This document shows positions 20,755 to 64,000 of a DNA stretch of 64,000 bases, in pieces; position 1 is the stretch's first letter, and every line of letters begins with the position of its first letter. The notes below the pieces were generated by a model, which was not told the DNA's origin, did not search any database, and saw only the letters and a list, made by a program, of their open reading frames with translations. The stretch is from Escherichia coli. Its GTDB lineage: Bacteria > Pseudomonadota > Gammaproteobacteria > Enterobacterales > Enterobacteriaceae. A program made the position numbers and the translations under genes. Location: assembly GCF_003019035.1 (NCBI RefSeq), contig NZ_CP027447.1; one strand, given 5' to 3'.

Positions 20755-20760
20755 TATTTT

Positions 20761-21266: not shown

Positions 21267-21519
21267 TTACGATGCCGGGCGTGGGTTGTTGGCGTCCGGC
21301 TTTATATCAAAACAACTCTTAGTTATTGATAATTAAGATTAACCTCCGCCATTAAAATAGTGGGCACTGACGAGCACTCGTTGTGCTTTCTTTGTTTACC
21401 ATCCCATACTTATCTTCCTGAACATGTTCATATGCCAAAATATCTTCTAATACTTTCGTGACGCTATCCGGTTTATGAAATACACTGATGTAAGATTTTT
21501 ACTTACAGGCGGGTGTAAA

Positions 21520-21771: not shown

Positions 21772-21772
21772 T

Positions 21773-22069: not shown

Positions 22070-22171
22070 ACCCGCCGATTGCGCTACAATGCCCGCCCTT
22101 AAAGTGGGGGCACTCCCCTAACCGCTTCATCAGGTGAAGCGGATCTGACCTGTCATCAGAACGAGAGAATT

Positions 22172-23533
22172 ATGTTTAAACCGGAACTCCTTTCCCCGGC
22201 GGGAACGCTGAAAAATATGCGTTACGCTTTCGCTTATGGCGCAGATGCTGTTTATGCGGGCCAGCCGCGTTACTCCCTGCGTGTGCGCAACAACGAATTC
22301 AACCACGAAAATCTCCAGCTCGGCATCAATGAAGCCCACGCGCTGGGGAAAAAGTTTTATGTCGTGGTCAACATTGCACCGCACAACGCCAAGCTGAAAA
22401 CCTTTATCCGTGACCTGAAACCGGTGGTGGAGATGGGGCCGGATGCGCTGATTATGTCCGATCCAGGGCTGATTATGCTGGTGCGCGAGCACTTCCCTGA
22501 AATGCCGATCCACCTCTCGGTGCAGGCTAACGCCGTGAACTGGGCGACGGTGAAATTCTGGCAGCAAATGGGACTGACCCGCGTGATCCTCTCTCGCGAG
22601 CTGTCGCTGGAAGAGATTGAAGAGATCCGTAATCAGGTGCCGGGTATGGAGATCGAGATCTTCGTTCACGGTGCGCTGTGCATGGCCTACTCCGGTCGCT
22701 GCCTGCTCTCTGGCTATATCAACAAGCGCGACCCGAACCAGGGCACCTGCACCAACGCCTGCCGCTGGGAGTACAACGTCCAGGAAGGGAAAGAAGATGA
22801 CGTTGGCAACATCGTGCACAAGTACGAGCCGATTCCGGTGCAAAATGTTGAGCCGACGCTGGGCATCGGCGCGCCAACCGACAAAGTGTTTATGATCGAA
22901 GAAGCTCAGCGTCCGGGCGAGTATATGACTGCGTTTGAAGATGAGCACGGCACTTACATCATGAACTCGAAAGATCTGCGCGCTATCGCCCACGTTGAAC
23001 GCCTGACCAAAATGGGCGTGCATTCGCTGAAAATCGAAGGTCGTACAAAATCTTTCTACTATTGCGCACGCACCGCGCAGGTTTACCGTAAAGCTATCGA
23101 TGACGCAGCTGCGGGAAAACCATTCGATACCAGCCTGCTGGAAACTCTGGAAGGTCTGGCGCATCGTGGCTATACCGAAGGTTTCCTGCGTCGTCATACT
23201 CACGACGATTATCAGAACTACGAATACGGTTATTCAGTTTCTGACCGCCAGCAGTTTGTTGGTGAGTTTACCGGTGAGCGCAAGGGCGACCTCGCGGCGG
23301 TAGCGGTGAAAAATAAATTCTCCGTTGGCGACAGCCTTGAGCTGATGACGCCGCAAGGGAACATTAACTTTACCCTTGAGCATATGGAAAACGCCAAAGG
23401 TGAAGCTATGCCGGTCGCACCAGGCGATGGTTATACTGTGTGGATCCCGGTGCCGCAGGATCTTGAGCTAAATTACGCGCTGCTGATGCGTAATTTCTCC
23501 GGGGAAACCACGCGTAACCCCCACGGTAAGTGA
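22172..23533 (+). CDS. yegQ: U32-family peptidase-like protein YegQ (TrhP)
   Basis: 453-aa ORF starting MFKPELLSPAGTLKNMRYAFAYGADAVYAG; U32 family by remembered homology. Confidence 0.9.
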   Translation: MFKPELLSPAGTLKNMRYAFAYGADAVYAGQPRYSLRVRNNEFNHENLQLGINEAHALGKKFYVVVNIAPHNAKLKTFIRDLKPVVEMGPDALIMSDPGLIMLVREHFPEMPIHLSVQANAVNWATVKFWQQMGLTRVILSRELSLEEIEEIRNQVPGMEIEIFVHGALCMAYSGRCLLSGYINKRDPNQGTCTNACRWEYNVQEGKEDDVGNIVHKYEPIPVQNVEPTLGIGAPTDKVFMIEEAQRPGEYMTAFEDEHGTYIMNSKDLRAIAHVERLTKMGVHSLKIEGRTKSFYYCARTAQVYRKAIDDAAAGKPFDTSLLETLEGLAHRGYTEGFLRRHTHDDYQNYEYGYSVSDRQQFVGEFTGERKGDLAAVAVKNKFSVGDSLELMTPQGNINFTLEHMENAKGEAMPVAPGDGYTVWIPVPQDLELNYALLMRNFSGETTRNPHGK

Positions 23534-48703: not shown

Positions 48704-48870
48704 CCCGACTCCTTATTTATAAAGATAACTTATCGCTATTAGTTTACCTGAAGTTAACAGCTAAGTACTTACCTAATAATGCATCATAAGATGCTTGCAC
48801 AGGACTTACGTAACCATGCCCCATTTGGTACTATCTAAGCCCTTTTCACTACAAAGAAGTAATGCCTACT

Positions 48871-50904
48871 ATGACTCAAGTCGCGAAGAAAATTCTGGTG
48901 ACGTGCGCACTGCCGTACGCTAACGGCTCAATCCACCTCGGCCATATGCTGGAGCACATCCAGGCTGATGTCTGGGTCCGTTACCAGCGAATGCGCGGCC
49001 ACGAGGTCAACTTCATCTGCGCCGACGATGCCCACGGTACACCGATCATGCTGAAAGCTCAGCAGCTCGGTATCACCCCGGAGCAGATGATTGGCGAAAT
49101 GAGTCAGGAGCATCAGACTGATTTCGCAGGCTTTAACATCAGCTATGACAACTATCACTCGACGCACAGCGAAGAGAACCGCCAGTTGTCAGAACTTATC
49201 TACTCTCGCCTGAAAGAAAACGGTTTTATTAAAAACCGCACTATTTCTCAGCTGTACGATCCGGAAAAAGGCATGTTCCTGCCGGACCGTTTTGTGAAAG
49301 GCACCTGCCCGAAATGTAAATCCCCGGATCAATACGGCGATAACTGCGAAGTCTGCGGCGCGACCTACAGCCCGACTGAATTGATCGAGCCGAAATCGGT
49401 GGTTTCTGGCGCTACGCCGGTAATGCGTGATTCTGAACACTTCTTCTTTGATCTGCCCTCTTTCAGCGAAATGTTGCAGGCATGGACCCGCAGCGGTGCG
49501 TTGCAGGAGCAGGTGGCAAATAAAATGCAGGAGTGGTTTGAATCCGGCCTGCAACAGTGGGATATCTCCCGCGACGCGCCGTACTTCGGTTTTGAAATTC
49601 CGAACGCGCCGGGTAAATATTTCTACGTCTGGCTGGATGCGCCGATTGGCTATATGGGTTCTTTCAAGAATCTGTGCGACAAGCGCGGCGACAGCGTAAG
49701 CTTCGATGAATACTGGAAGAAAGACTCCACCGCCGAGCTGTACCACTTCATCGGTAAAGATATTGTTTACTTCCACAGCCTGTTCTGGCCAGCAATGCTG
49801 GAAGGCAGCAACTTCCGCAAGCCGACCAACCTGTTTGTTCATGGCTATGTGACGGTGAACGGCGCGAAGATGTCTAAGTCTCGCGGTACCTTTATTAAGG
49901 CCAGCACCTGGCTGAATCATTTTGACGCCGACAGCCTGCGTTACTACTACACTGCGAAACTCTCTTCGCGCATTGATGATATCGATCTCAACCTGGAAGA
50001 TTTCGTTCAGCGCGTGAATGCCGATATCGTTAACAAAGTGGTTAACCTGGCCTCTCGTAATGCGGGCTTTATCAACAAGCGTTTTGACGGCGTGCTGGCA
50101 AGCGAACTGGCTGACCCGCAGTTGTACAAAACCTTCACGGATGCCGCTGAAGTGATTGGTGAAGCGTGGGAAAGCCGCGAATTTGGTAAAGCAGTGCGCG
50201 AAATCATGGCGCTGGCTGATCTGGCTAACCGCTATGTCGATGAACAGGCTCCGTGGGTGGTGGCAAAACAGGAAGGCCGCGATGCCGACCTGCAGGCAAT
50301 TTGCTCAATGGGCATAAACCTGTTCCGCGTGCTGATGACTTACCTGAAGCCGGTACTGCCGAAACTGACCGAGCGCGCAGAAGCATTCCTCAATACAGAA
50401 CTGACCTGGGATGGTATCCAGCAACCGCTGCTGGGCCACAAAGTGAATCCGTTCAAAGCGCTGTATAACCGCATCGATATGAAGCAGGTTGAAGCACTGG
50501 TGGAAGCGTCTAAAGAAGAAGTGAAAGCAGCTGCCGCGCCAGTTACTGGCCCACTGGCAGATGATCCGATTCAGGAAACCATCACCTTTGACGACTTCGC
50601 CAAAGTTGACCTGCGCGTGGCGCTGATCGAAAACGCAGAGTTTGTTGAAGGTTCTGACAAACTGCTGCGCCTGACGCTGGATCTCGGCGGTGAAAAACGC
50701 AATGTCTTCTCCGGCATTCGTTCTGCTTACCCGGATCCGCAGGCACTTATTGGTCGTCATACCATTATGGTGGCTAACCTGGCACCACGTAAAATGCGCT
50801 TCGGTATCTCCGAAGGCATGGTGATGGCTGCCGGTCCTGGCGGGAAAGATATCTTCCTGCTAAGCCCGGATGCTGGTGCTAAACCGGGTCATCAGGTGAA
50901 ATAA
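48871..50904 (+). CDS. metG: Methionyl-tRNA synthetase
   Basis: 677 aa from [25 protein letters not shown], with the HIGH-type motif, KMSKS and C-terminal tRNA-binding domain. The ORF track adds 3 codons upstream. Confidence 0.95.
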
Positions 50905-50913
50905 TCCCCCTTC

Positions 50914-50943
50914 AAGGCGCTGCATCGACAGCGCCTTTTCTTT
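50914..50943 (+). terminator. Rho-independent terminator of metG
   Basis: AAGGCGCTG-catcga-CAGCGCCTT hairpin followed by TTTCTTT. Confidence 0.8.
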
Positions 50944-51044
50944 ATAAATTCCTAAAGTTGTTTTCTTGCGATTTTGTCTCTCTCTAACCCGCATAAATAC
51001 TGGTAGCATCAGCATTCAACTGGATAAAATTACAGGGATGCAGA

Positions 51045-54000
51045 ATGAGACACTTTATCTATCAGGACGAAAAATCACATAAATTCTGGGCGGTGGAGCA
51101 GCAGGGAAACGAGTTGCATATCTGTTGGGGAAAAGTTGGCACCAAAGGGCAAAACCAAGTAAAAAGTTTTGCGGATGCTGCGGCAGCGGCAAAAGCGGAG
51201 CTTAAGCTGATCGCGGAGAAGGTGAAGAAGGGATATGTGGAGCAAGCGAAGGATAATTCTTTGCAACCTTCCCAAACGGTAACGGACTCTCTCAAGGTAG
51301 CGGACTTATCCACCATTATTCAGGAACAACCCTCTTTCGTAGCAGAAACCCGTGCGGCTGACAAAAATACAGATGCTGTTTTACCGTGGCTGGCAAAAGA
51401 TATTGCTGTCGTTTTTCCGCTTGAAGTCGTACCCACCACCTTAAGCCATCGCCGCTTTCCCGGAGATCCTGTTACACCTGTAGATAAATTAACCCAGTTA
51501 CGTCGCTTAGCCTGTGGCGTGTCGCAACGGGATAACAAAACAGCTACATTTGACTTCAGCGCCTGTACTTTAGAGTGGCAAAACTTCATCGCTCAGGCGA
51601 TCGATCTGATTAACAGCCCGAAAACGACAAAATTACCATCACCGGTAATGGCTGTACTCGCGGCACTTGAACTGCACTGCACGAGATATAAAGAGCGTGA
51701 GGATGTTATGGATCAGATTATTCAGGAAGGCGGTCTGGAATATGCTACTGATGTAATAATACATCTTCAACAAATATCTATTGAATGGGATTATGTCAAC
51801 AATAATATTGTTTTCCTGTCGTCTGGCATTTCACCTGATTACTTGCAGCAATATTCCAGCTTTGAATTACGCCTACGTAAACATTTATCACTGGCGGAAG
51901 AGTCTCTCTGGCAAAAATGTGCACAAAAACTTATTGCCGCAGTTCCACATATTCCAGAATGGCGGCAACCATTAATTGCTTTGTTATTACCCGAAAAACC
52001 AGAAATTGCACATGAAATTGCCCAGCGTCTACTGGGGCAAAAGAAATTACCCTCGCTTGAGTGGCTAAAAATAGTGGCGACTGATGAGCACATTCTTGCC
52101 TCATTAGAAAAATATCACGAGCCATATGCCATTTTTGATGATTACTATTGTGGTGCGATATGGTCAGCCACCGTATTACAGGAGCAAGGTGTTGCAGCCC
52201 TGCCCCGATTTGCACCCTATGTCGCAAGTGACTACTGCGCCGATGTGTTGAGTCATATCAATCATCCGTTCGCATTAACACTGCTTATACGTGTAGCCGG
52301 GCATACTAAACGCTGTCACGATCGAATGACGAAAGCCTGCGCTGCGTTCCCACACGCAGCACTGGCAGCACTGGCGGAACTTCTAGTGCAAAAAGAAGAG
52401 AATAGTTGGCGCATTATGCTAATGACGATGCTTATCTCGCAACCTACACTAGCAGAACAGGTCATTCCCTGGCTTTCGACACCCGCAGTTGCAGTGCTGA
52501 AATCATGCCAGCAACAACTGAAACAGCCCTCAAACCATGCCAGTGCCGATCTACTGCCGGCCATAGTAGTCTCCCCACCATGGCTTTCGAAAAAGAAAAA
52601 ATCGCCGATTCCGGTGCTTGATTTAGCACCGCTCAACCTCGAATCCATATGCACAATAACCGACACAGAAGCTAAAGAGTTTCAAACTCATTGGGACTGG
52701 GAACCGCATAAGCCAGGTGAAGGTGCTAAAGATTTCCTTTACTCGCTGGGGTATCGCCGCTGGGATTTTGACACATATAAATATATCGGCGCTTCTGACT
52801 CGGCAATTGACGCATGGGAACGTGAGGACTTCGCTACACTCATCCAAATGTTTAAAGCCCACCATGCACCGTATCAGGGGGAGTGGCATCTCAACTCACT
52901 TCCCTTTTTACCTATGCAAAAAGCGATTAAACTATGGGAATTTCTCAGCAAAGAGCCGCATACCGCGGTAAAACCTGTCATGCTTTATTTGCGACTGGCA
53001 GGTATGAGTGGTTTTCTACACTCGTTTTCACGCTACCCTCAAGAAGGTTTTGCGGTTGCTAATTATTTTGCCGCAACGGAACTGGCTCCTGCCGTCGCCC
53101 GCGCCTTTAACAAACTCAAAACTCTACGACAAGACGCCCGCACCTGGCTGCTGAAATATCCGGAACATGCCATTACCGGCCTGTTGCCTGCGGCACTCGG
53201 CAAAGCCGGTGAATCCCAGGATAACGCCCGTGCCGCTTTACGTATGTTGATTGAAAATGGTTATCCGTCATTACTGCAAGAAATCGCCCAGCGTTATAAC
53301 CAGCCGGAAGTAACCGATGCGGTGAACGCTCTACTTGCGCTCGATCCCTTAGATAATCACCCGACTAAAATCCCGACACTTCCGGCCTTTTATCAGCCAT
53401 CGCTCTGGACGCGCCCGGTATTAAAAGCAAACGCCCAATCACTGCCAGATAGCGCCCTCTTCCACCTCGGTGAAATGCTCCGCTTCCCTCAGGAAGATAC
53501 GCTGTATCCGGGGTTATTACAGGTGAAAGACGCCTGTACTGCCGACTCACTGGCTGAGTTTGCCTGGGATCTGTTTACCGCCTGGCAGACCGCTGGCGTG
53601 CCGTCGAAAGAGAGCTGGGCGTTCACTGCATTAGGTGTTCTTGGCAACGATGACACCGCCCGCAAACTGACGCCATTAATCCGCGCCTGGCCTGGCGAAT
53701 CTCAGCATAAACGTGCCACCGTTGGGTTGGATATTCTCGCTGCTATCGGCAGCGATATCGCCCTGATGCAGCTTAACGGCATCGCCCAGAAACTGAAATT
53801 CAAAGCCTTACAGGAGCGGGCGAAAGAAAAAATTGCCGACATTGCCGAAAGTCGCGAACTCACAGTGGCAGAACTTGAAGATCGGTTAGCACCGGATCTC
53901 GGTCTGGATGATAACGGTTCGCTGCTGCTGGATTTCGGGCCACGGCAGTTCACCGTCAGCTTTGATGAAACCTTAAAACCGTTTGTGCGTGATGCTTCCG

Positions 54001-54833
54001 GCAGCCGCCTGAAAGACTTGCCTAAACCGAACAAAAGCGATGATGAAACCCAAGCGAACGATGCAGTTAACCGCTACAAACTGTTGAAAAAAGATGCGCG
54101 TACCGTTGCCGCCCAGCAGGTAGCAAGGCTGGAATCCGCCATGTGCCTGCGCCGCCGCTGGTCGCCGGAAAACTTTCAGCTCTTCCTGGTTGAGCATCCG
54201 CTGGTTCGCCACTTAACCCGCCGTCTGATTTGGGGCGTTTATAGCACCGAAAACGAGCTACTGGCTTGCTTTCGCGTGGCGGAAGATAACAGCTACAGCA
54301 CCGCAGACGATGATCTTTTCACCCTGCCGGAAGGCGATATCTCTGTTGGCATTCCTCACGTTCTGGAAATATCACCCACGGATGCTGCCGCCTTTGGTCA
54401 ACTTTTTGCCGACTACGAACTGCTACCGCCGTTCCGCCAGCTCGACCGTAACAGTTACGCCCTGACAGAAGCCGAGCGCAACGCCAGCGAACTGACCCGC
54501 TGGGCAGGCAGAAAATGCCCGAGCGGTCGGGTAATGGGGCTGGCGAATAAAGGCTGGATAAAGGGCACCCCGCAGGATGGAGGCTGGATCGGCTGGATGA
54601 TCAAACCTCTCGGTCGCTGGTCGTTAATCATGGAAATCAATGAAGGATTTGCAGTTGGTATGTCGCCAGCCGAACTCAGTGCCGAGCAACTCTTAAGTAA
54701 GCTGTGGCTATGGGAAGGCAAAGCGGAAAGCTATGGCTGGGGGAGCAATTCAACACAGGAAGCGCAGTTCTCCGTACTCGATGCCATCACCGCCAGCGAG
54801 CTAATTAACGATATTGAAGCCCTTTTTGAATAA
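51045..54833 (+). CDS. yehH: Large WGR-like N-terminal domain protein YehH (MolR-like), intact
   Basis: 1262-aa uninterrupted ORF. N-terminus FIYQDEKSHKFWAVEQQGNELHICWGKVG looks like a WGR domain. It shares long collinear blocks with the downstream paralog. Confidence 0.85.
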   Translation: MRHFIYQDEKSHKFWAVEQQGNELHICWGKVGTKGQNQVKSFADAAAAAKAELKLIAEKVKKGYVEQAKDNSLQPSQTVTDSLKVADLSTIIQEQPSFVAETRAADKNTDAVLPWLAKDIAVVFPLEVVPTTLSHRRFPGDPVTPVDKLTQLRRLACGVSQRDNKTATFDFSACTLEWQNFIAQAIDLINSPKTTKLPSPVMAVLAALELHCTRYKEREDVMDQIIQEGGLEYATDVIIHLQQISIEWDYVNNNIVFLSSGISPDYLQQYSSFELRLRKHLSLAEESLWQKCAQKLIAAVPHIPEWRQPLIALLLPEKPEIAHEIAQRLLGQKKLPSLEWLKIVATDEHILASLEKYHEPYAIFDDYYCGAIWSATVLQEQGVAALPRFAPYVASDYCADVLSHINHPFALTLLIRVAGHTKRCHDRMTKACAAFPHAALAALAELLVQKEENSWRIMLMTMLISQPTLAEQVIPWLSTPAVAVLKSCQQQLKQPSNHASADLLPAIVVSPPWLSKKKKSPIPVLDLAPLNLESICTITDTEAKEFQTHWDWEPHKPGEGAKDFLYSLGYRRWDFDTYKYIGASDSAIDAWEREDFATLIQMFKAHHAPYQGEWHLNSLPFLPMQKAIKLWEFLSKEPHTAVKPVMLYLRLAGMSGFLHSFSRYPQEGFAVANYFAATELAPAVARAFNKLKTLRQDARTWLLKYPEHAITGLLPAALGKAGESQDNARAALRMLIENGYPSLLQEIAQRYNQPEVTDAVNALLALDPLDNHPTKIPTLPAFYQPSLWTRPVLKANAQSLPDSALFHLGEMLRFPQEDTLYPGLLQVKDACTADSLAEFAWDLFTAWQTAGVPSKESWAFTALGVLGNDDTARKLTPLIRAWPGESQHKRATVGLDILAAIGSDIALMQLNGIAQKLKFKALQERAKEKIADIAESRELTVAELEDRLAPDLGLDDNGSLLLDFGPRQFTVSFDETLKPFVRDASGSRLKDLPKPNKSDDETQANDAVNRYKLLKKDARTVAAQQVARLESAMCLRRRWSPENFQLFLVEHPLVRHLTRRLIWGVYSTENELLACFRVAEDNSYSTADDDLFTLPEGDISVGIPHVLEISPTDAAAFGQLFADYELLPPFRQLDRNSYALTEAERNASELTRWAGRKCPSGRVMGLANKGWIKGTPQDGGWIGWMIKPLGRWSLIMEINEGFAVGMSPAELSAEQLLSKLWLWEGKAESYGWGSNSTQEAQFSVLDAITASELINDIEALFE

Positions 54834-54842
54834 GGAAAGAGC

Positions 54843-57800
54843 ATGGACAAGGAATTACCGTGGCTGGCGGATAACGCGCAACTGGAACTGAAATATAAAA
54901 AGGGTAAAACACCACTCAGCCATCGCAATTGGCCGGGTGAACCGGTGCCTGTTATCACTGAAAGCATCATCCAGACACTGGGTGATGAATTGCTACACAT
55001 TGCTGAGAAGAAAAAAAACATTGTCTGGCGTTATGATAATTTTTCACTGGAGTGGCAGTCCGCCATCACGCAGGCCATCAACTTGATCGGCGAACACAAA
55101 CCCTCAATCCCGGCCCGGACAATGGCGGCGCTAGCCTGTATCGCGCAAAATGATAGCCAACAGTTACTCGACGAAATCGTCCAACAAGAGGGACTGGAAT
55201 ATGCGACTGAAGTGGTGATTGCACGCCAGTTTATTGTACGGTGTTATGAGAGTGATCCTCTGGTAGTAACATTGCAGTATCAGAAGGAGGACTATGGCTA
55301 TGGCTATGGCTATGGCTATGGCTATGGCTATGGTTATCGCTCAGAAACCTATAACGAATTCGATCTCCGACTGCGTAAGCATCTCTCTCTGGCAGAGGAA
55401 AGCTGCTGGCAGCGTTGCGCCGACAAACTCATTGCCGCACTGCCAGGACTACCCCAAGTTCGCCGTCCTTTTATTGCACTCATCCTCCCGGAAAAACCAG
55501 AAATCGCCAATGAGTTGGTAGGCCTTGAATGCCCGTGGACTCATTTTCATTCTAAGGAGTGGTTAAAAGTTGTTGCTACTGACCACAGGGCAGTGGGAAA
55601 ACTCGAACGCTACTGGAGCCAGGATATATTTAGCGATCGCGAAGCCAGCTACATGTCGCATGAAAACCACTTCGGCTACGCGGCCTGCGCCGCCCTTTTG
55701 CGCGAACAAGGAATTGCAGCCGTTCCACGCCTCGCGATGTATGCCCATAAAGAAGATTGCGGTAGCCTGCTGGTACAAATTAACCATCCGCAGGTCATCC
55801 GCACCCTGCTGTTAGTTGCTGATAAAAACAAACCCAGCCTGCAACGTGTGGCTAAATACAGTAAAAACTTCCCCCATGCGACGCTTGCCGCACTGGCAGA
55901 GCTTCTGGCGTTAAAAGAACCGCCTGCACGCCCTGGTTATCCAATCATCGAAGACAAAAAGCTGCCTGCACAGCAAAAAGCTCGAGATGAATACTGGCGT
56001 ACGCTGTTACAAACGCTGATGGCATCGCAGCCACAACTGGCAGAAGAGGTGATGCCGTGGTTAAGTACTCAAGCCCAGGCAGTGCTGAATAGTTATTTAT
56101 CGGCACCGCCCAAAACGGTTATTGATAGCACCGATAACATCCAAATGCCTGAAATCCTCGTTTCACCACCGTGGCGTAGTAAGAAAAAAATGACAGTTCC
56201 ACGTCTTGATTTGGCACCGTTCGAATTAACGCCGCAAGTTTACTGGCAACCAGGCGAACGAGAGAGGCTTGCCGCCACTGAGTCTGCCCGTTATTTCAGC
56301 ACGGAATCTCTTGCGGAACGCATGGAACAAAAAAGTGGACGAGTTGTATTACAGGAGCTGGGTTTTGGAGATGATGTATGGCTGTTTTTGAATTATATAC
56401 TCCCCGGAAAACTGGATGCTGCACGCAATTCACTCATTGTTCAGTGGCATTACTACCCAGGGCGGGTTGAAGAGATCATGAATGGCTGGAGCTCCCCGGA
56501 AGCTCAATTAGCAGAACAGGCGCTTCGCAACGGTCACGTAGAAGTGTTAATTAACATATGGGAAAATGACAGCTACTCACGCTATCGTCGGGAAAAGAGT
56601 ATCTGGAACCTGTATTTATTGGCGCAGTTGCCGCGTGAGATGGCTTTGACTTTCTGGCTACGTATCAATGAGAAAAAGCATCTGTCTGCGGGTGAGGACT
56701 ATTATCTCAGTATCTTCGGATTGGATGCTCTACCAGGTCTGCTGTTGGCTTTTTCACATCGTCCAAAAGAAACATTTCCATTAATTTTAAATTTCGGCGC
56801 AACAGAACTGGCCCTGCCCGTTGCCCGCGTCTGGCGACGTTTCGCGGCGCAGCGTGATCTGGCTCGCCAGTGGATTTTACATTGGCCGGAACATACAGCT
56901 ACTGCACTTATCCCTCTTGTCTTCACCAAATCCAGCGATAATAGCGAAGCTGCATTACTTGCCCTGCGTTTACTTTACGAACAGGGACATGGCGAGTTAC
57001 TGCAAACCGTGGCAAACCGCTGGCAGCGTACAGATGTGTGGCCTGCCCTGGAGCAATTACTTAAACAGAGTCCAATAGAGATTTACCCGACACGCATTCC
57101 AAAAGCCCCTGATTTCTGGCAGCCGGCAATGTGGTCCAGGCCGCGCCTTATCACGAATAATCAACCTGTTACCGATGACGCTCTGGAAATTATCGGCGAA
57201 ATGCTGTGCTTTACCCAGGGCGGACGTTTTTATAGCGGACTGGAACAACTGAAAACTTTCTGCCAGCCGCAAACGCTGGCAGCTTTTGCCTGGGATCTCT
57301 TCACCGCGTGGCAACAAGCTGGTGCTACCGCAAAAGACAACTGGGCATTTCTGGCGTTAAGTCTCTTTGGCGACGAAAGCACGGCACGGGATCTGACGAC
57401 ACAGATCCTTGCCTGGCCACAAGAGGGCAAATCTGCCCGTGCTGTCAGTGGTCTGAATATACTTACTCAGATGAATAATGATATGGCACTGATACAGCTG
57501 CATCATATATCGCAACGGGCGAAATCCCGCCCCTTACGTGATAACGCGGCGGAATTTCTTCAGGTGGTCGCAGAAAATCGTGGGCTAAGCCAGGAACAGT
57601 TAGCGGACAGATTAGTCCCAACACTGGGTCTTGATGATCCGCAGGCGTTGAGTTTTGATTTTGGTCCCCGGCAGTTTACCGTTCGCTTTGATGAAAACCT
57701 TAACCCGGTTATCTTTGATCAGCAAAACGTTCGCCAGAAAAGCGTTCCCCGGTTGCGCGCCGATGACGATCAACTGAAAGCGCCCGAGGCACTGGCCCGA

Positions 57801-58505
57801 CTAAAAGGGCTAAAAAAAGATGCCACTCAGGTGAGCAAAAACCTGCTCCCACGTCTTGAAACTGCCCTGCGCACCACCCGACGCTGGTCGCTGGCAGATT
57901 TTCATTCTCTGTTTGTTAATCATCCCTTTACCCGCCTGGTTACTCAGCGATTGATATGGGCGGTTTATCCGGCAAATGAACCGCGTCGTTTACTCAACGC
58001 CTTTCGTGTGGCCGCTGAGGGGGAGTTCTGCAATGAGCAAGATGAGCCAATTGACCTGCCTGCCGATGCTCTGATTGGCATTGCCCACCCGTTAGAAATG
58101 ACAGCAGAAATGCGCAGTGAATTTGCACAGCTTTTTGCCGATTACGAAATTATGCCGCCTTTTCGCCAGTTGACGCGGCGCACAGTGCTGCTCACGCCTG
58201 ACGAGTCAGCCAGTAATAGTTTGAATCGCTGGGAAGGTAAATCTGCTACCGTTGGGCAGCTTATGGGAATGCGATACAAAGGCTGGGAGTCAGGCTATGA
58301 GAACGCATTTGTCTATGACCTGGGCGAGTACCGGCTGGTCCTTAAGTTTTCATCCGGTTTTAACCACTACAATGTTGATAGCAAAGCGCTAATGAGCTTC
58401 CGTTCTCTTCATGTATACCGTGACAATAAATCTGTCACTTTTGCCGAACTTGATGTGTTTGATTTGAGTGAAGCGTTAAGCGCACCCGACGTCATTTTCC
58501 ATTAA
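54843..58505 (+). CDS. yehI: Large paralog of YehH lacking the WGR-like N-terminus (YehI)
   Basis: 1220-aa ORF. Shared blocks with YehH include LRLRKHLSLAEES, PEKPEIA, DLFTAWQ, LDFGPRQFTV and QLFADYE. Confidence 0.85.
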   Translation: MDKELPWLADNAQLELKYKKGKTPLSHRNWPGEPVPVITESIIQTLGDELLHIAEKKKNIVWRYDNFSLEWQSAITQAINLIGEHKPSIPARTMAALACIAQNDSQQLLDEIVQQEGLEYATEVVIARQFIVRCYESDPLVVTLQYQKEDYGYGYGYGYGYGYGYRSETYNEFDLRLRKHLSLAEESCWQRCADKLIAALPGLPQVRRPFIALILPEKPEIANELVGLECPWTHFHSKEWLKVVATDHRAVGKLERYWSQDIFSDREASYMSHENHFGYAACAALLREQGIAAVPRLAMYAHKEDCGSLLVQINHPQVIRTLLLVADKNKPSLQRVAKYSKNFPHATLAALAELLALKEPPARPGYPIIEDKKLPAQQKARDEYWRTLLQTLMASQPQLAEEVMPWLSTQAQAVLNSYLSAPPKTVIDSTDNIQMPEILVSPPWRSKKKMTVPRLDLAPFELTPQVYWQPGERERLAATESARYFSTESLAERMEQKSGRVVLQELGFGDDVWLFLNYILPGKLDAARNSLIVQWHYYPGRVEEIMNGWSSPEAQLAEQALRNGHVEVLINIWENDSYSRYRREKSIWNLYLLAQLPREMALTFWLRINEKKHLSAGEDYYLSIFGLDALPGLLLAFSHRPKETFPLILNFGATELALPVARVWRRFAAQRDLARQWILHWPEHTATALIPLVFTKSSDNSEAALLALRLLYEQGHGELLQTVANRWQRTDVWPALEQLLKQSPIEIYPTRIPKAPDFWQPAMWSRPRLITNNQPVTDDALEIIGEMLCFTQGGRFYSGLEQLKTFCQPQTLAAFAWDLFTAWQQAGATAKDNWAFLALSLFGDESTARDLTTQILAWPQEGKSARAVSGLNILTQMNNDMALIQLHHISQRAKSRPLRDNAAEFLQVVAENRGLSQEQLADRLVPTLGLDDPQALSFDFGPRQFTVRFDENLNPVIFDQQNVRQKSVPRLRADDDQLKAPEALARLKGLKKDATQVSKNLLPRLETALRTTRRWSLADFHSLFVNHPFTRLVTQRLIWAVYPANEPRRLLNAFRVAAEGEFCNEQDEPIDLPADALIGIAHPLEMTAEMRSEFAQLFADYEIMPPFRQLTRRTVLLTPDESASNSLNRWEGKSATVGQLMGMRYKGWESGYENAFVYDLGEYRLVLKFSSGFNHYNVDSKALMSFRSLHVYRDNKSVTFAELDVFDLSEALSAPDVIFH
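55293..55334 (+). repeat. Hexanucleotide microsatellite (TATGGC)6 plus TATGGT inside yehI, encoding a (Tyr-Gly)7 tract
   Basis: Seen directly; translated as DYGYGYGYGYGYGYRS. The paralog YehH has no repeat at the equivalent position. Confidence 0.9.
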
Positions 58506-58565
58506 AACACAGCGGGCAGTGATGCGACTGCCCGTTATTAACACGACCTGCCACCGGGGGAAGCG

Positions 58566-58886
58566 ATGATCGTGCAAAAAGAGCTGGTCACTATTTACGA
58601 TTATGAGGCCCCTGTACCTGAAGAGCCGTTTTCCTTCAGACTTGAGATCCATAAATGCTCTGAATTATTTACAGGTTCCATCTACCGGCTGGAGCGATTC
58701 CGGCTACATCCAACATTTCATCAACGTGATCGAGAGGATATCGACCCGCTAATAAATGATGCGTTGATTTATATAAGAGATGAGTTTATTGATGAGCGAA
58801 AATTACGGGGCGAATCACCAGAAACGGTAATAGCCATTTTTAATCGTGAACTACAGAATATATTCAACCAAGAAATAGAAAAATAG
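58566..58886 (+). CDS. yehK: Small protein of unknown function YehK
   Basis: 106-aa ORF; AGGGG-rich upstream region; followed by a hairpin terminator. Confidence 0.75.
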   Translation: MIVQKELVTIYDYEAPVPEEPFSFRLEIHKCSELFTGSIYRLERFRLHPTFHQRDREDIDPLINDALIYIRDEFIDERKLRGESPETVIAIFNRELQNIFNQEIEK

Positions 58887-58892
58887 CTTTAT

Positions 58893-58920
58893 TAAAGGGG
58901 GGAAACGGTATTCCCCCTTA
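58893..58920. terminator. Bidirectional hairpin terminator between yehK and the convergent small toxin-like ORF
   Basis: GGGGGAA-acggta-TTCCCCC hairpin at 58898-58917. Confidence 0.55.
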
Positions 58921-58940
58921 GATGCGTTTCAATTTGCCCG

Positions 58941-59030
58941 TTACTTCAACAAATCAATCAGCCGTAACAGAGCCACTAATAACTCCAGTACGGCAATGAG
59001 CACGGTTAACTTTTGTGTCAGCGTGTCCAT
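58941..59030 (-). CDS. Unannotated 29-aa hydrophobic peptide, TisB/DinQ-like type I toxin candidate (MDTLTQKLTVLIAVLELLVALLRLIDLLK)
   Basis: Hand translation of the minus strand. AAGGAG sits 5 nt before the ATG. The product is a single amphipathic helix resembling TisB and DinQ from memory. It is below the ORF-track size cut-off. Confidence 0.55.
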   Translation of the reverse strand: MDTLTQKLTVLIAVLELLVALLRLIDLLK

Positions 59031-59211
59031 CCGCTCTCCTTATTAAGGAGCGCAACACCAGCATCTTACCCTTACACTGCCTGTCGATACTGGTTTACGT
59101 ATGTTGGACCACGATGTTGCACTCCGGATCAGGGCACTACCTGCGGCACCACCCGTCCGGTAGCCAGGACTTGAAATGGGTTCGATCCGGCGCAACGTCC
59201 CAACAGTCAGG

Positions 59212-59239
59212 ATTATAAATCTCATTATCTTAATTGCAA
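59212..59239 (-). promoter_or_regulatory. Putative sigma70 promoter for the toxin-like mRNA (-35 TTGCAA, 16-nt spacer, -10 TATAAT on the minus strand)
   Basis: Near-consensus hexamers seen directly. The -35 TTGCAA is palindromic and is shared with the divergent plus-strand promoter. Confidence 0.5.
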
Positions 59240-59262
59240 CGGGGTCCACCGATGGTTATAAT
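59234..59262 (+). promoter_or_regulatory. Putative sigma70 promoter for the plus-strand sRNA (-35 TTGCAA, 17-nt spacer, -10 TATAAT)
   Basis: Consensus -10 and near-consensus -35 with optimal spacing, about 7 nt upstream of the predicted sRNA 5' end. Confidence 0.55.
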
Positions 59263-59268
59263 TCGTTC

Positions 59269-59352
59269 GTTGGAACACGATGTTGCACAGGCCGTGGTGT
59301 TAGGCCTGAAAGTAGTAAATAAAAGAACCTGCCTCACCAGCAGGTTTTTTTA
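59269..59352 (+). ncRNA. Putative ~80-nt trans-acting antitoxin-like sRNA
   Basis: Predicted 5' end GTTGGAACACGATGTTGCAC; internal stem-loop CAGGCC-N9-GGCCTG at 59288-59308; AU-rich linker; terminator ACCTGC-ctcacca-GCAGGT plus a run of 7 T (59327-59352). Confidence 0.5.
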
Positions 59353-59462
59353 TTTACTATGATCTGCTTTCCAGATATTTTCCGCTCAAACAACTAATGC
59401 GCCAAACATTTATTGCGCGTAAAATATCGTTTATTTCATTAATACATTTCAGGGATGAATAT

Positions 59463-60551
59463 ATGTCACCGCAGAATAATCATCTGCAGCGTCCGCCTGC
59501 CGCTGTGTTATACGCCGATGAACTGGCAAAATTAAAACAAAATGATCACGCACCTTGCCCGCCCGGTTGGCAGTTAAGTTTGCCTGCGGCCCGTGTTTTT
59601 ATCCTTGGCGACGAAGCACAAAATATTAGCCGTAAAGTCGTGATTAGCCCCTCCGCTGTCGAACGCATGTTAGTCACTCTCGCTACCGGGCGCGGTTTGA
59701 TGTTGGTGGGGGAACCTGGCACCGCAAAATCGCTCCTGTCTGAATTACTGGCAACCGCTATTAGCGGCGATGCCGGGTTAACCATCCAGGGCGGCGCATC
59801 TACTACTGAAGATCAAATCAAGTACGGCTGGAACTACGCCCTGCTTATCAACCATGGTCCGTCAACGGAAGCACTGGTCCCTGCCCCGCTTTACCAGGGA
59901 ATGCGCGACGGCAAAATCGTCCGTTTTGAAGAGATAACGCGTACACCGCTGGAAGTACAAGACTGTCTGTTAGGTATGCTTTCTGACAGGGTGATGACGG
60001 TGCCGGAGCTCACCGCTGAAGCCAGTCAGCTCTATGCGCGGGAAGGCTTTAATATTATTGCCACTGCCAATACCCGCGATCGCGGCGTCAATGAAATGAG
60101 TGCTGCGCTAAAGCGTCGTTTCGATTTTGAAACTGTCTTTCCGATTATGGATTTCGCTCAGGAGCTGGAGCTTGTCGCCAGTGCTTCGGCGCGTTTGCTG
60201 GCCCATAGCGGTATTCCGCATAAAGTGCCTGACGCGGTACTGGAGTTACTGGTCCGCACCTTCCGCGATCTGCGTGCCAACGGCGAAAAGAAAACGTCAA
60301 TGGATACACTAACAGCGATTATGTCCACCGCTGAAGCCGTGAACGTGGCCCACGCTGTGGGCGTCCGCGCCTGGTTTTTAGCGAATCGCGCAGGTGAGCC
60401 AGCCGATCTGGTGGACTGTATTGCCGGAACCATCGTCAAAGATAACGAAGAAGATCGCGCGCGTCTGCGCCGTTACTTCGAACAGCGAGTCGCCACACAT
60501 AATGAAGCTCACTGGCAGGCTTATTATCAAGCTCGCCACCGCCTGCCGTGA
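59463..60551 (+). CDS. yehL: MoxR-like AAA+ ATPase YehL
   Basis: 362 aa from the ATG at 59463. Walker A (LVGEPGTAKS), Walker B-like (IVRFEEITR) and a sensor region (TANTRDRGVNEMSAALKRRFDF). The ORF track adds 22 codons upstream. Confidence 0.85.
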   Translation: MSPQNNHLQRPPAAVLYADELAKLKQNDHAPCPPGWQLSLPAARVFILGDEAQNISRKVVISPSAVERMLVTLATGRGLMLVGEPGTAKSLLSELLATAISGDAGLTIQGGASTTEDQIKYGWNYALLINHGPSTEALVPAPLYQGMRDGKIVRFEEITRTPLEVQDCLLGMLSDRVMTVPELTAEASQLYAREGFNIIATANTRDRGVNEMSAALKRRFDFETVFPIMDFAQELELVASASARLLAHSGIPHKVPDAVLELLVRTFRDLRANGEKKTSMDTLTAIMSTAEAVNVAHAVGVRAWFLANRAGEPADLVDCIAGTIVKDNEEDRARLRRYFEQRVATHNEAHWQAYYQARHRLP

Positions 60552-60561
60552 GGAAAGATGC

Positions 60562-62841
60562 ATGAGCGAGCCGTTAATTGTCGGCATCCGGCATCATAGT
60601 CCGGCCTGCGCCCGGCTGGTGAAATCGTTAATCGAAAGCCAGCGGCCACGATACGTGTTGATTGAAGGCCCGGCTGATTTTAATGACCGGGTAGACGAAC
60701 TGTTGTTAGCCCACCAGCTTCCGGTAGCTATTTACAGTTATTGCCAGTATCAGGATGGTGCGGCCCCCGGGCGTGGTGCCTGGACGCCATTTGCTGAATT
60801 TTCGCCGGAGTGGCAGGCGCTACAAGCCGCACGTCGTATTCAGGCACAAACTTACTTCATCGATTTGCCTTGCTGGGCACAAAGTGAAGAAGAGGACGAT
60901 TCGCCTGATACGCAAGAGGAAAGCCAGACCTTGCTGCTGCGTGCCACCCGCATGGATAACAGCGACACCCTGTGGGATCACTTGTTCGAAGATGAAAGCC
61001 AGCAAACTGCATTACCCTCTGCACTGGCGCACTATTTTGCCCAACTGCGGGGCGACGCCTCCGGCGATGCACTCAATCGTCAGCGCGAAGCCTTTATGGC
61101 CCGCTGGATTGCATGGGCGATGCAGCAAAATAATGGCGACGTATTAGTCGTCTGCGGAGGCTGGCACGCTCCGGCACTGGCAAAAATGTGGCGCGAATGC
61201 CCGCAAGAAATTAACACGCCAGAATTGCTCTTACTGGATGATGCCGTTACAGGTTGCTATCTCACGCCATACAGTGAAAAGCGCCTTGATGTGCTGGCAG
61301 GATACCTTTCAGGAATGCCTGCCCCGGTCTGGCAAAACTGGTGCTGGCGGTGGGGCTTGCAGCAGGCAGGTGAACAACTGCTGAAAACGGTTCTTACCCG
61401 TTTGCGCCAGCACCACTTGCCTGCTTCAACAGCGGATATGGCTGCCGCTCATCTGCATGCGATGGCACTGGCACAGTTGCGCGGTCATACACTACCGTTA
61501 CGCACTGACTGGCTGGATGCCATAGCAGGATCGCTGATTAAAGAAGCCCTGAATGCGCCGTTGCCGTGGAGCTATCGCGGCGTTATTCATCCCGATACCG
61601 ATCCGATTCTGCTAACGTTGATAGACACATTAGCGGGTGACGGATTCGGTAAACTTGCCCCTTCTACGCCACAACCGCCTCTGCCAAAAGATGTCACCTG
61701 CGAACTGGAACGTACCGCAATCTCTCTTCCGGCGGAGCTTACCTTAAATCGCTTTACCTCCGATGGACTGGCGCAAAGTCAGGTGTTACATCGGCTGGTA
61801 ATACTGGAGATCCCAGGGGTTGTGCGCCAGCAGGGAAGTACACTGACACTTGCAGGCAACGGTGAAGAACGCTGGAAATTAACCCGCCCGCTTAGCCAAC
61901 ATGCGGCATTAATTGAGGCCGCCTGCTTTGGTGCCACACTCCAGGAAGCCGCACGCCATAAATTAGAAGCCGATATGCTGGACGCGGGTGGAATCGGCAG
62001 TATCACCACATGTCTTAGCCAGGCGGCGTTAGCGGGTCTGGCGTCCTTCAGTCAACAATTACTGGAGCAACTTACATTATTAATCGCCCAGGAAAATCAG
62101 TTTGCCGAAATGGGCCAGGCGCTGGAAGTGCTATACGCCTTATGGCGGCTGGATGAAATTAGCGGTATGCAAGGCGCGCAGATATTACAGACGACGTTAT
62201 GCGCAGCTATCGATCGCACACTCTGGCTGTGTGAATCCAACGGCAGACCGGATGAAAAGGAGTTTCACGCTCACCTGCATAGCTGGCAAGCGCTTTGCCA
62301 TATCCTGCGCGATCTACATAGCGGCGTTAATTTACCCGGCGTTTCGCTTTCTGCGGCGGTAGCCTTACTGGAGCGCCGCAGTCAGGCGATTCATGCCCCG
62401 GCGCTGGATCGCGGCGCGGCTCTTGGCGCACTAATGCGTCTGGAACATCCCAACGCCAGTGCCGAAGCGGCGCTGACGATGCTGGCGCAGTTATCCCCGG
62501 CACAATCCGGCGAGGCGCTGCACGGTTTGCTGGCATTAGCCCGTCATCAACTGGCCTGTCAGCCGGCATTTATCGCCGGTTTCAGTAGTCATTTAAATCA
62601 ACTGAGTGACGACGATTTTATTAACGCCCTGCCCGATTTACGCGCGGCGATGGCCTGGCTACCACCACGAGAACGCGGGACGCTGGCGCATCAGGTGCTT
62701 GAGCATTACCAGCTCGCACAGCTTCCCATTTCAGCGCTGCAAATGCCGTTGCATTGTCCACCGCAAGCCATTGCACATCATCAACAACTCGAACAGCAGG
62801 CACTGGCATCGCTGCAACACTGGGGAGTTTTCCATGTCTGA
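60562..62841 (+). CDS. yehM: Large protein of unknown function YehM
   Basis: 759 aa from the ATG at 60562 (MSEPLIVGIRHHSPACARLV), 10 nt after the yehL stop. Its stop overlaps the yehP start (ATGTCTGA). Confidence 0.8.
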   Translation: MSEPLIVGIRHHSPACARLVKSLIESQRPRYVLIEGPADFNDRVDELLLAHQLPVAIYSYCQYQDGAAPGRGAWTPFAEFSPEWQALQAARRIQAQTYFIDLPCWAQSEEEDDSPDTQEESQTLLLRATRMDNSDTLWDHLFEDESQQTALPSALAHYFAQLRGDASGDALNRQREAFMARWIAWAMQQNNGDVLVVCGGWHAPALAKMWRECPQEINTPELLLLDDAVTGCYLTPYSEKRLDVLAGYLSGMPAPVWQNWCWRWGLQQAGEQLLKTVLTRLRQHHLPASTADMAAAHLHAMALAQLRGHTLPLRTDWLDAIAGSLIKEALNAPLPWSYRGVIHPDTDPILLTLIDTLAGDGFGKLAPSTPQPPLPKDVTCELERTAISLPAELTLNRFTSDGLAQSQVLHRLVILEIPGVVRQQGSTLTLAGNGEERWKLTRPLSQHAALIEAACFGATLQEAARHKLEADMLDAGGIGSITTCLSQAALAGLASFSQQLLEQLTLLIAQENQFAEMGQALEVLYALWRLDEISGMQGAQILQTTLCAAIDRTLWLCESNGRPDEKEFHAHLHSWQALCHILRDLHSGVNLPGVSLSAAVALLERRSQAIHAPALDRGAALGALMRLEHPNASAEAALTMLAQLSPAQSGEALHGLLALARHQLACQPAFIAGFSSHLNQLSDDDFINALPDLRAAMAWLPPRERGTLAHQVLEHYQLAQLPISALQMPLHCPPQAIAHHQQLEQQALASLQHWGVFHV

Positions 62842-63970
62842 ACTGAACGATCTTCTGACCACCCGTGAGCTACAACGCTGGCGATTAATTCTTGGCGAAG
62901 CGGCAGAAACGACGCTTTGTGGGCTGGATGACAACGCCCGGCAGATAGACCACGCGCTGGAGTGGCTGTACGGGCGCGATCCTGAACGGCTCCAGCGTGG
63001 TGAACGCTCTGGTGGATTAGGTGGCTCAAATCTCACCACCCCTGAGTGGATCAACAGTATTCACACGCTGTTTCCGCAACAGGTGATTGAGCGACTGGAA
63101 AGCGATGCCGTACTGCGCTACGGCATTGAAGATGTGGTGACGAATCTCGACGTGCTGGAACGTATGCAGCCTTCTGAAAGCCTGCTACGCGCCGTTTTGC
63201 ACACCAAACATCTGATGAATCCCGAAGTACTGGCTGCCGCCCGCCAGATAGTGCGCCAGGTTGTTGAAGAAATTATGGCTCGACTGGCAAAGGAAGTTCG
63301 TCAGGCTTTTTCTGGTGTCCGCGATCGCCGTCGCCGCTCATTTATTCCACTGGCGCGAAACTTTGATTTCAAAAGTACTCTGCGCGCCAACCTGCAACAC
63401 TGGCACCCGCAACACGGCAAGTTGTATATCGAATCCCCCCGCTTTAACAGCCGCATTAAACGCCAAAGCGAACAATGGCAACTGGTCTTACTGGTTGATC
63501 AAAGCGGATCAATGGTGGACTCGGTGATCCACTCAGCGGTGATGGCGGCCTGTTTATGGCAGTTACCCGGTATTCGTACCCATCTGGTGGCGTTTGACAC
63601 CAGCGTGGTTGATCTCACGGCAGACGTTGCCGATCCGGTAGAGTTATTAATGAAAGTGCAATTAGGCGGCGGAACCAATATCGCCAGTGCCATGGAATAT
63701 GGTCGGCAACTTATTGAACAACCAGCGAAAAGCGTCATTATCCTCGTGAGTGATTTTTATGAAGGGGGTTCATCATCATTGCTGACGCATCAGGTGAAAA
63801 AGTGTGTCCAGAGCGGCATCAAAGTGCTGGGGCTGGCAGCGCTCGACAGCACCGCAACGCCTTGCTATGACCGCGATATGGCCCAGGCGCTGGTTAATGT
63901 TGGCGCACAAATAGCCGCAATGACACCGGGTGAACTGGCTACCTGGCTTGCGGAGAATTTGCAGTCATGA
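62834..63970 (+). CDS. yehP: von Willebrand factor A domain protein YehP
   Basis: 378 aa from the ATG at 62834. MIDAS DxSxS motif (LLVDQSGSMVDS) and a C-terminal vWA fold signature (IILVSDFYEGG). Confidence 0.85.
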   Translation: MSELNDLLTTRELQRWRLILGEAAETTLCGLDDNARQIDHALEWLYGRDPERLQRGERSGGLGGSNLTTPEWINSIHTLFPQQVIERLESDAVLRYGIEDVVTNLDVLERMQPSESLLRAVLHTKHLMNPEVLAAARQIVRQVVEEIMARLAKEVRQAFSGVRDRRRRSFIPLARNFDFKSTLRANLQHWHPQHGKLYIESPRFNSRIKRQSEQWQLVLLVDQSGSMVDSVIHSAVMAACLWQLPGIRTHLVAFDTSVVDLTADVADPVELLMKVQLGGGTNIASAMEYGRQLIEQPAKSVIILVSDFYEGGSSSLLTHQVKKCVQSGIKVLGLAALDSTATPCYDRDMAQALVNVGAQIAAMTPGELATWLAENLQS

Positions 63971-64000
63971 ATTCACTACGTCCGGAATTATTAGAACTGA
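63967..64000 (+). CDS. yehQ: YehQ, 5' end only; gene continues beyond window
   Basis: ATG at 63967 overlaps the yehP stop (ATGA); translation MNSLRPELLEL...; identity is inferred from gene order only. Confidence 0.55.
   Translation, partial: MNSLRPELLEL

Follow-up and report, generated by a model that had tools for sequence, protein, structure and literature searches.

The yehH-yehI and yehL-yehM-yehP-yehQ genes of Escherichia coli form one conserved multi-protein module with a tentative link to DNA damage

Organization and conservation of the yeh genes

A module of up to seven genes, two of them giant, is near-universal in Escherichia coli and has been without an assigned function since the genome was sequenced. 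We analyzed this module, built around yehH-yehI and yehL-yehM-yehP-yehQ, in a window of 64,000 nucleotides (nt) of E. coli contig NZ_CP027447.1 (assembly GCF_003019035.1); "the window" here means this whole stretch. The original prediction, made from the sequence alone, had described yehL, yehM, yehP, and the start of yehQ as consecutive plus-strand genes separated by a 10-nt gap and overlapping stop and start codons, and had read them as a translationally coupled MoxR-class AAA+ and von Willebrand factor A (vWA) unit. Re-reading of the sequence reproduced this layout exactly. On the plus strand, yehL (59463..60551; 362 amino acids [aa]) is followed after 10 nt by yehM (60562..62841; 759 aa), with a GAGGA within the spacer 5' of the yehM ATG. 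The yehP gene (62834..63970, plus strand; 378 aa) starts at an ATG within ATGTCTGA and shares its first 8 nt with the end of yehM, and yehQ starts on the same strand at 63967, overlapping the end of yehP via ATGA. As had also been stated, the 3' limit lies past the window, since yehQ is truncated after 34 nt by the window end (63967..64000). The full gene (2001 nt, 666 aa), which extends 1967 nt beyond the window, was taken from the near-identical E. coli SCU-301 (locus L001, positions 20505-22505). YehQ lengths differ within Escherichia (e.g., 623-624, 666-667, 672, and 709 aa). Upstream on the plus strand lie the two giant genes yehH, also named molR (51045..54833; 1262 aa), and yehI (54843..58505; 1220 aa), followed by the small yehK (58566..58886; 106 aa). 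The annotated order in SCU-301 is apbC, metG, yehH (DUF4132), yehI, yehK, yehL, yehM, yehP, yehQ, yehR, yehS, and btsRS. All module genes are intact in the window strain.

Conservation of this arrangement was assessed by a scan of GTDB with one genome per species, using an 18-sequence YehM alignment. YehM was recovered in at least 536 species, and the best 80 loci were analyzed, with neighbor counts restricted to loci with enough flanking sequence. These 80 loci came from Enterobacterales, Xanthomonadales, Burkholderiales, Myxococcota, and many Actinomycetota. Across Proteobacteria, Myxococcota, and Actinomycetota we found a recurrent, tightly packed order of one to four WGR/DUF4132 genes followed by genes for AAA_5 (YehL), DUF5682 (YehM), VWA_CoxE (YehP), and SWIM (YehQ) proteins. 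The neighborhood check suggested earlier thus showed that the AAA+/vWA/YehM set co-occurs outside Escherichia, in the same order in several phyla. YehL adjoined YehM in all 75 loci that could be scored, YehP accompanied YehM in 68/69 loci, two genes downstream of YehL, and YehQ was found with YehM in 66/69. The same order was seen in Burkholderia and in metagenomic contigs encoding distant YehM homologues, with a SWIM protein of ∼690 aa; the giant WGR plus DUF4132 gene lay upstream of the cassette in the homologous contigs and downstream of it in Burkholderia. In total, a library of 1.84 billion proteins, grouped at 50% identity, contained YehM (DUF5682) in 2259 representative clusters.

The spacings were conserved as well. 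Projected from the alignments, the median distances in the 80 loci were 2 nt from yehL to yehM, -16 nt from yehM to yehP, and -7 nt from yehP to yehQ. With medians of this size in 80 species, the close packing of the genes is no coincidence, and translational coupling is therefore a conserved property of the four genes, which agrees with their earlier description as a single coupled unit. Moreover, YehM and YehP occurred as natural fusions in four distant clusters (33-39% identity), an argument for physical contact between the two proteins at work. Four E. coli "fusion" proteins (P0001, P0003, P0010, and P0013; 96-97% identity to the query) probably reflect frameshifts or assembly errors and were left out of this number.

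The original prediction had also placed yehH and yehI in the same functional island. At least one DUF4132 gene was present near YehM in 65/68 loci, each of which has one to four such genes, and the median spacing between the last DUF4132 gene and yehL was 38 nt. A search of the 80 loci for any further flanking family conserved beyond genus level returned none, so that the membership of yehH and yehI in the island is supported; the only constant partners across loci were the DUF5682, SWIM, and DUF4132 proteins. We conclude that yehH-yehI and yehL-yehM-yehP-yehQ are one conserved multi-protein module. For yehK, which is without a recognizable domain and without an NCBIfam or PADLOC match, no homologue was detected in 80 non-Escherichia loci; it is Escherichia-specific, and its membership in the module is uncertain.

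Domain composition of the encoded proteins

YehL matched the Pfam family AAA_5 (6.6e-34) and carries a Walker A motif (GEPGTAKS, residues 83-90), a Walker B motif (VRFEEITR, residues 153-160), and a sensor/arginine region (TANTRDRG...LKRRF). These Walker A/B, sensor, and Arg motifs were at least 90% conserved in 83 orthologues; the acidic pair of Walker B is E-E instead of D-E and is invariant. By sequence, the nearest solved relatives of YehL were the AAA domains of midasin (2.3e-09), and NCBIfam returned weak, sub-threshold matches to GvpN (6e-08), MadB, and McrB (0.0015). YehL has given its name to the YehL subfamily of MoxR ATPases (PMC3893208), which has been named since 2006 (cited in PMC3893208), and at the level of "MoxR plus vWA" the module is therefore not a new kind of system. 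YehP consists of a helical N-terminal region and a vWA domain, for which VWA_CoxE was the best Pfam family (1.1e-71). Its metal-ion-dependent adhesion site (MIDAS) is intact, with D222, S224, and S226 in DQSGS (residues 222-226), T281 in GGGT (residues 278-281), and D307; DQSGSM and GGGT were at least 90% conserved in 80 orthologues. NCBIfam gave only a weak, sub-threshold cobaltochelatase match for YehP, and a search of PDB with its sequence gave nothing useful. Both halves of the MoxR-class AAA+/vWA assignment were thus borne out by family matches and by motifs.

YehM had previously been described as a protein with no motif recognizable by eye. The protein as a whole can now be assigned to DUF5682 (4.8e-97), its only Pfam match, and its N-terminal domain to a TIKI-type fold. 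In the structure model, this domain (about residues 1-250; nt 60562-61311, plus strand) appears as an alpha/beta fold with a parallel beta-sheet core as in ChaN, HopBA1, PMT, Ere, and RRSP; it is followed by a middle domain and a C-terminal HEAT-like alpha-solenoid. The fold-match figures were 10.2 for a TraB-family protein, 9.5 for HopBA1, 9.0 and 8.2 for erythromycin-esterase-like proteins, 7.6 for the C-domain of the Pasteurella toxin, 7.5 for EreC, and 7.2 for RRSP. The same set of relatives makes up the list of the TIKI superfamily in a structural paper, in which the catalytic signature is given as two His, two Glu, and one conserved basic residue (PMC6254334). In YehM, H11, H12, E35, E83, R175, E176, and H202 are invariant or at least 90% conserved, and several of them follow strands of the fold: H11/H12 come after strand 1, E35 after strand 2, and H202, within a GGxH turn, after the strand formed by residues 194-199. 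The Pfam profiles TraB_PrgY_gumN, Cofac_haem_bdg, and Erythro_esteras did not match YehM, nor did PDB contain a sequence match to it, whether a single sequence or a profile was used; the relation to TIKI proteins is therefore visible at the fold level only. As judged from the model, the N-terminal domain of YehM is a TIKI-superfamily hydrolase-like fold with candidate catalytic His/Glu/Arg residues, followed by a HEAT-like scaffold.

The model of YehQ (predicted local distance difference test score [pLDDT], 91.8) predicts two SWIM fingers, helical bundles, and two beta-barrels. In the first finger, C70, C72, C78, and H80 (CxC..CxH) are invariant, and the second finger lies at residues 166-176. 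The region of about residues 330-560 was matched by two independent programs to a tandem OB module resembling RPA70, POT1, and HIN domains (best Foldseek E value, 2.3e-3). Domain searches of YehM and YehQ, which the original prediction had singled out as places where effector or sensor domains might lie, thus yielded SWIM fingers and an OB-like tandem in YehQ and a TIKI-like fold in YehM, and no recognizable effector-associated or death-like domain in either.

YehH has an N-terminal WGR domain (Pfam, 3.7e-17; residues 6-69), a long middle region, and a C-terminal DUF4132 domain (1.8e-51; residues 986-1171). YehI is a paralogue without the WGR domain, 37% identical to YehH over ∼1190 aa from YehH residue 110 onward. 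The C-terminal DUF4132 region was the best conserved, with 50-58% identity between E. coli and Burkholderia, Mycobacterium, or Myxococcales, and contains a conserved acidic PDLGLD...LDFG.R.F motif. A search for new architectures with this C-terminal domain recovered close relatives and fragments only. The label "molybdate metabolism regulator" attached to molR found no support in sequence or neighborhood. Within yehI, positions 55292-55341 hold an in-frame hexanucleotide repeat (CTATGG, 8.3 units) encoding (YG)8. The number of units is 13 in the SCU-301 record, which does not differ otherwise, and 3 in the K-12-like and EcPF5 strains. This fast-changing microsatellite lies in a loop of YehI and has no equivalent in YehH.

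Promoter motifs and a possible DNA-damage function

A LexA (SOS) box-like site, CTGGATAAAATTACAG, is present at 51020..51035 on the plus strand, 10 nt 5' of the yehH ATG. It has one mismatch to CTGT-N8-ACAG with an all-A/T spacer, and it was identical in the K-12-like strain and in EcPF5 (3/3 strains). In the literature, molR, i.e., yehH, appears in a table of genes under LexA control whose SOS box is known (PMC6590174, Table 1), and E. coli MolR is stated to belong to the LexA regulon (PMC8533742). In Deinococcus, DRA0166 (DUF4132) and DR2173 (WGR) have DdrO operator sites, and the increase of both proteins upon mitomycin C treatment requires IrrE (PMC8533742).

We also searched for the consensus of the actinobacterial damage regulator PafBC, tGTCgg(N10)tA(N3)T (PMC8635444). 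In 1.38 Mb of loci with high guanine-plus-cytosine (GC) content, the coding strand carried 25 occurrences of the motif and the opposite strand 1; dinucleotide-shuffled sequences gave a mean of 2.0 and a maximum of 4 for both strands together. It was present in 21/40 actinobacterial loci and in 0/31 other high-GC loci. Nearly all occurrences mapped to the 5' ends of DUF4132 genes, to within a few dozen nt; in the one locus that lacks such a gene, yehL is the gene preceded by the motif. The actinobacterial DUF4132 genes thus lie behind predicted PafBC-type promoters. Matches to the actinobacterial LexA motif, GAAC-N4-GTTC, were few and inconsistently placed, and a proteomics paper on PafBC in M. 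smegmatis lists only the unrelated MoxR1/2. All seven Lentzea loci (L043, L047, L049, L051, L059, L061, and L062) carry a near-identical 22-nt element, TGTCAGACCCCCTGAGTAACGT, at the 5' end of a DUF4132 gene. In three of them (L059, L061, and L062), a motif of this type stands before each of two consecutive DUF4132 paralogues, each of which therefore seems to have its own damage-type promoter.

LexA, PafBC, and DdrO, three unrelated regulators from three phyla, therefore point the same way, namely to DNA damage. Together with the WGR domain and the tandem OB folds, the LexA box and the PafBC motifs, all of which the original prediction had missed, make up a better-supported alternative to defence. 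We therefore propose, tentatively and with somewhat less than even confidence, that the Yeh module has a role in the DNA-damage response, as a damage-induced AAA+/vWA remodeler that would act on protein-DNA complexes. In this mechanism, damage would induce the WGR/DUF4132 proteins via LexA, PafBC, or DdrO, depending on the phylum, and these proteins would act as lesion-directed adaptors and possibly as clients. YehQ, with its OB and SWIM domains, would bind single-stranded or broken DNA. The YehL ring, coupled via the MIDAS domain of YehP to the YehM scaffold, would spend ATP on pulling at or remodeling a protein stuck on DNA, and the TIKI-like site of YehM could hydrolyze a peptide or ester bond in that target. 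In a more specific version, which we consider rather improbable as it stands, the module would clear trapped or cross-linked proteins from DNA, for instance a topoisomerase, a methyltransferase, or a formaldehyde adduct, as a non-homologous counterpart of eukaryotic p97-SPRTN; this clearing is the most speculative step.

Several observations weigh against a damage function. In E. coli, yehH is the only gene of the module with a LexA-like box in front of it, and none was found in the spacer between yehK and yehL, ahead of yehLMPQ (58887-59462). This 576-nt spacer parts yehLMPQ from yehHIK; it holds a terminator-like hairpin as well as a type I toxin-antitoxin pair, which separates the two groups transcriptionally. 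A LexA box upstream of the cassette was also sought in 28 other proteobacterial loci and found in none, and damage control is therefore lineage-specific and not universal. Furthermore, yehL and yehM are repressed by H-NS/StpA (PMC3686432). Support for the OB domains of YehQ is statistically weak (best Foldseek E value, 2.3e-3), and the YehQ profile gave no sequence-level match in PDB. WGR and SWIM domains can bind proteins as well as nucleic acids. Finally, the His/Glu set of YehM is a candidate site by conservation, and some proteins with a TIKI fold are not enzymes (ChaN binds haem, and PMT is without the motif).

The toxin-antitoxin pair itself comprises elements at 58941-59030 on the minus strand and 59276-59351 on the plus strand. 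The toxin part is a hydrophobic open reading frame of 29 aa, MDTLTQKLTVLIAVLELLVALLRLIDLLK, which we take to be ZorO/ZorP-like. The antitoxin part matched the Rfam OrzO-P RNA (98.9 bits) and ends in the terminator-like hairpin; the RNA was also present in EcPF5 and in the shorter, 306-nt spacer of the K-12-like strain.

Alternative explanations and relation to known systems

The original prediction had regarded the genes as a candidate conflict or defence system. As an anti-phage or anti-mobile-element system, the module would sense invading DNA through its WGR, SWIM, and OB domains and transduce the signal through the AAA+/vWA pair; the TIKI-like YehM would be a proteolytic effector, and the DUF4132 paralogues would be diversified sensors. 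The architecture of a nucleoside triphosphatase (NTPase), a vWA protein, and a putative protease fits conflict systems, the TIKI fold is used by the toxins RRSP, PMT, and HopBA1, and AAA_5 includes McrB, to which YehL has the weak match given above. However, none of YehH, YehI, YehK, YehL, YehM, YehP, and YehQ matched any of the 5027 models of PADLOC-DB v2, even at an E value of 0.01 (0/7 proteins). The locus was present in 5336/5426 complete E. coli genomes (98%), at one chromosomal site between metG and yehR and amid housekeeping genes, i.e., at a near-core fixed site. Among the 20 nearest neighbors in 11 diverse loci, two matched defence models, one as an LmuA homologue and the other with a partial match to MzaA, and 18 did not, and no flanking family was common across genera. 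The LmuA homologue, of the Lamassu type (PADLOC, 1.1e-18), is encoded in Edaphovirga cremea (locus L008, positions 17394-18722), ∼1.8 kb downstream of the cassette, and by itself would favor a defence role.

Mobile elements gave a similar picture. A tblastn search with YehM hit 38 of 72,556 plasmid records, of which several are clearly chromosomes or megaplasmids, and, among 50,697 phage records, only one unverified contig and no verified phage. This contig, MT835988.1 ("UNVERIFIED: Bacteriophage sp.," from human faeces; 14 kb, 44.7% GC), encodes YehL, YehM, and YehP homologues in the usual order (locus L090, positions 253-4879). A YehQ or DUF4132 gene was not detected on it by profiles, and open reading frames of 250, 229, 440, 1207, and 424 aa follow instead. 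It may represent a variant cassette with different partners and is probably bacterial rather than viral.

Selection was estimated from pairwise ratios of nonsynonymous to synonymous substitution rates (dN/dS) among three divergent E. coli strains. The ratio was 0.03-0.05 for yehL, 0.05-0.07 for yehP, 0.07 for yehQ, 0.09-0.10 for yehM, 0.12 for yehH, and 0.18-0.20 for yehI; for comparison, metG showed 0.01-0.02. With values of 0.03-0.20, all genes are therefore under purifying selection throughout, and these whole-gene ratios, well below 1, speak against defence. On the other side, yehH and yehI evolve faster than yehLMPQ (0.12-0.20 versus 0.03-0.10), with ∼93.5% nucleotide identity to other strains as opposed to ∼96% for yehLMPQ. 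Also compatible with a conflict role are the DUF4132 copy number, which varies from 0 to 4, the silencing of yehL and yehM by H-NS (PMC3686432), the GC content of yehLMPQ (54-56%, against ∼50% in the flanks), and the pseudogenes or deletions found in some strains. WYL-type regulators also control defence systems (PMC10693628). The specific promoter motif that we found is that of the PafBC DNA-damage regulon, which weighs against defence. In general, some features agree with a conflict role, no testable defining feature of a defence system was found, and we regard the defence reading as unlikely.

Alternatively, the module could serve chaperoning or maturation without a direct role on DNA. YehL and YehP would then assemble a client, activate it, or load it with a metal or cofactor; the DUF4132 giants would be the client, and a ChaN-like YehM would handle metal or haem. 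The family assignments agree with this: the best Pfam family of YehP is that of CoxE, and YehL belongs to AAA_5 like CoxD, NorQ, CbbQ, and GvpN, with the GvpN match noted above. MoxR proteins in general are chaperone-like maturation factors (PMC3893208), the client-like DUF4132 genes are always adjacent, and their conserved acidic PDLGLD could be a MIDAS ligand. However, no cox, nor, cbb, or chelatase client gene is conserved beside the cassette in any lineage among the 80 loci, and the WGR, SWIM, and tandem OB domains and the LexA, PafBC, and DdrO promoters would be left unexplained. Moreover, YehM appears from its conserved residues to retain a hydrolase-type His/Glu/Arg set, unlike a mere binder. 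We consider this explanation doubtful.

Individual strains have lost parts of the module. In the K-12-like E. coli O16:H48, yehH is frameshifted and has an internal stop (locus L087, positions 8001-11796), and yehQ has an internal stop (positions 20627-22627). In KFu022, the 5' part of yehH is fused to the 3' part of yehP (locus L089, positions 10752-12407), with loss of yehI, yehK, yehL, and yehM. The yehK gene is frameshifted in EcPF5, and in a sublineage of ST131, a blaCTX-M-15 transposon is inserted in the metG/DUF4132/yeh region (PMC9334617). Over window positions 48862-64000, identity to most E. coli strains was ∼97-98% for metG, ∼96% for yehLMPQ, and ∼93.5% for yehH-yehI; among the 5426 complete genomes, only SCU-301 was at least 99% identical to this segment. 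These lesions, the resistance insertion, and H-NS silencing (PMC3686432) could suggest that the module, once acquired horizontally, has lost its function in E. coli and is decaying there; a paper on the genome-reduced strain DGF-298 also mentions yehI, yehK, yehL, yehM, yehP, and yehQ. We consider such a functionless remnant very improbable, because every gene is intact in the window strain, dN/dS stays at 0.03-0.20 among divergent strains, at least 80% of yehLMPQ is retained in 5212/5426 genomes, and the catalytic motifs are conserved over several phyla. Since both yehH and yehQ are disrupted in the K-12-like strain, the module is probably non-functional there, and K-12 is the wrong host for testing it; these pseudogenes may explain why two decades of K-12 genetics gave no result.

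In line with the original prediction, which had called the biochemical role uncharacterized, we found no functional paper on yehL, yehM, yehP, yehQ, or DUF5682 in the searchable literature. Against this background, the recognition of a five-component cassette and of how widely it occurs, the folds of DUF5682 and of the YehQ body, and the convergence of damage regulons appear to be new. The E. coli module is common to Actinomycetota, Myxococcota, and many Proteobacteria, and folds for two "blank" proteins together with three regulators converging on DUF4132/WGR genes give rise to a testable hypothesis. If a function in DNA damage with removal of trapped proteins proved true, a gap in bacterial DNA repair would be filled, namely the enzymatic removal of DNA-trapped proteins, and the YehL branch of MoxR ATPases would receive its first function.

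The components of the module can be compared with several known systems. The TIKI superfamily (Tiki, TraB/PrgY, ChaN, erythromycin esterases, RRSP, and HopBA1) has no detectable sequence similarity to YehM, and YehM differs from these proteins in that its TIKI-like domain shares one chain with a middle domain and a HEAT-like solenoid and is coupled with the AAA+ and vWA proteins of the module. Midasin/Rea1, the eukaryotic ribosome-assembly AAA+ protein with a C-terminal MIDAS, resembles the Yeh proteins in its parts and not by orthology; in the Yeh module, the ATPase, the MIDAS, and the solenoid are separate small proteins with no apparent ribosome link. Closer in gene arrangement are the MoxR/vWA pairs RavA-ViaA, CoxD-CoxE, NorQ-NorD, CbbQ-CbbO, and BchI-BchD, in which, as in Yeh, a gene for a MoxR/AAA_5-class ATPase lies near a vWA-MIDAS gene. 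In contrast to these pairs, YehL and YehP belong to a constant set of five components, the others being the DUF5682, SWIM/OB, and WGR-DUF4132 proteins, have no adjacent metabolic client enzyme, and are associated with DNA-damage promoters in two lineages. MoxR-vWA ternary conflict systems, reportedly described by Kaur et al. in 2020, are said to consist of bpMoxR, a vWA protein, and a beta-propeller protein or VMAP. Like Yeh, they combine an NTPase, a vWA protein, and a third large protein in one operon. However, the match of YehL to Pfam bpMoxR is weak (E value, 0.0024) and confined to 51 residues around the P-loop, and the Yeh module has no beta-propeller and no recognizable effector-associated or death-like domain, has other partners, and is not in PADLOC. 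Finally, p97/Cdc48 and SPRTN/Wss1 repair DNA-protein crosslinks in eukaryotes. Their components are non-homologous to those of Yeh, and the likeness that we infer between them and the proposed Yeh role is one of function only: a ring-shaped AAA+ unfoldase would work with an adaptor and with a hydrolase guided by DNA, and DNA damage would induce or recruit the whole.

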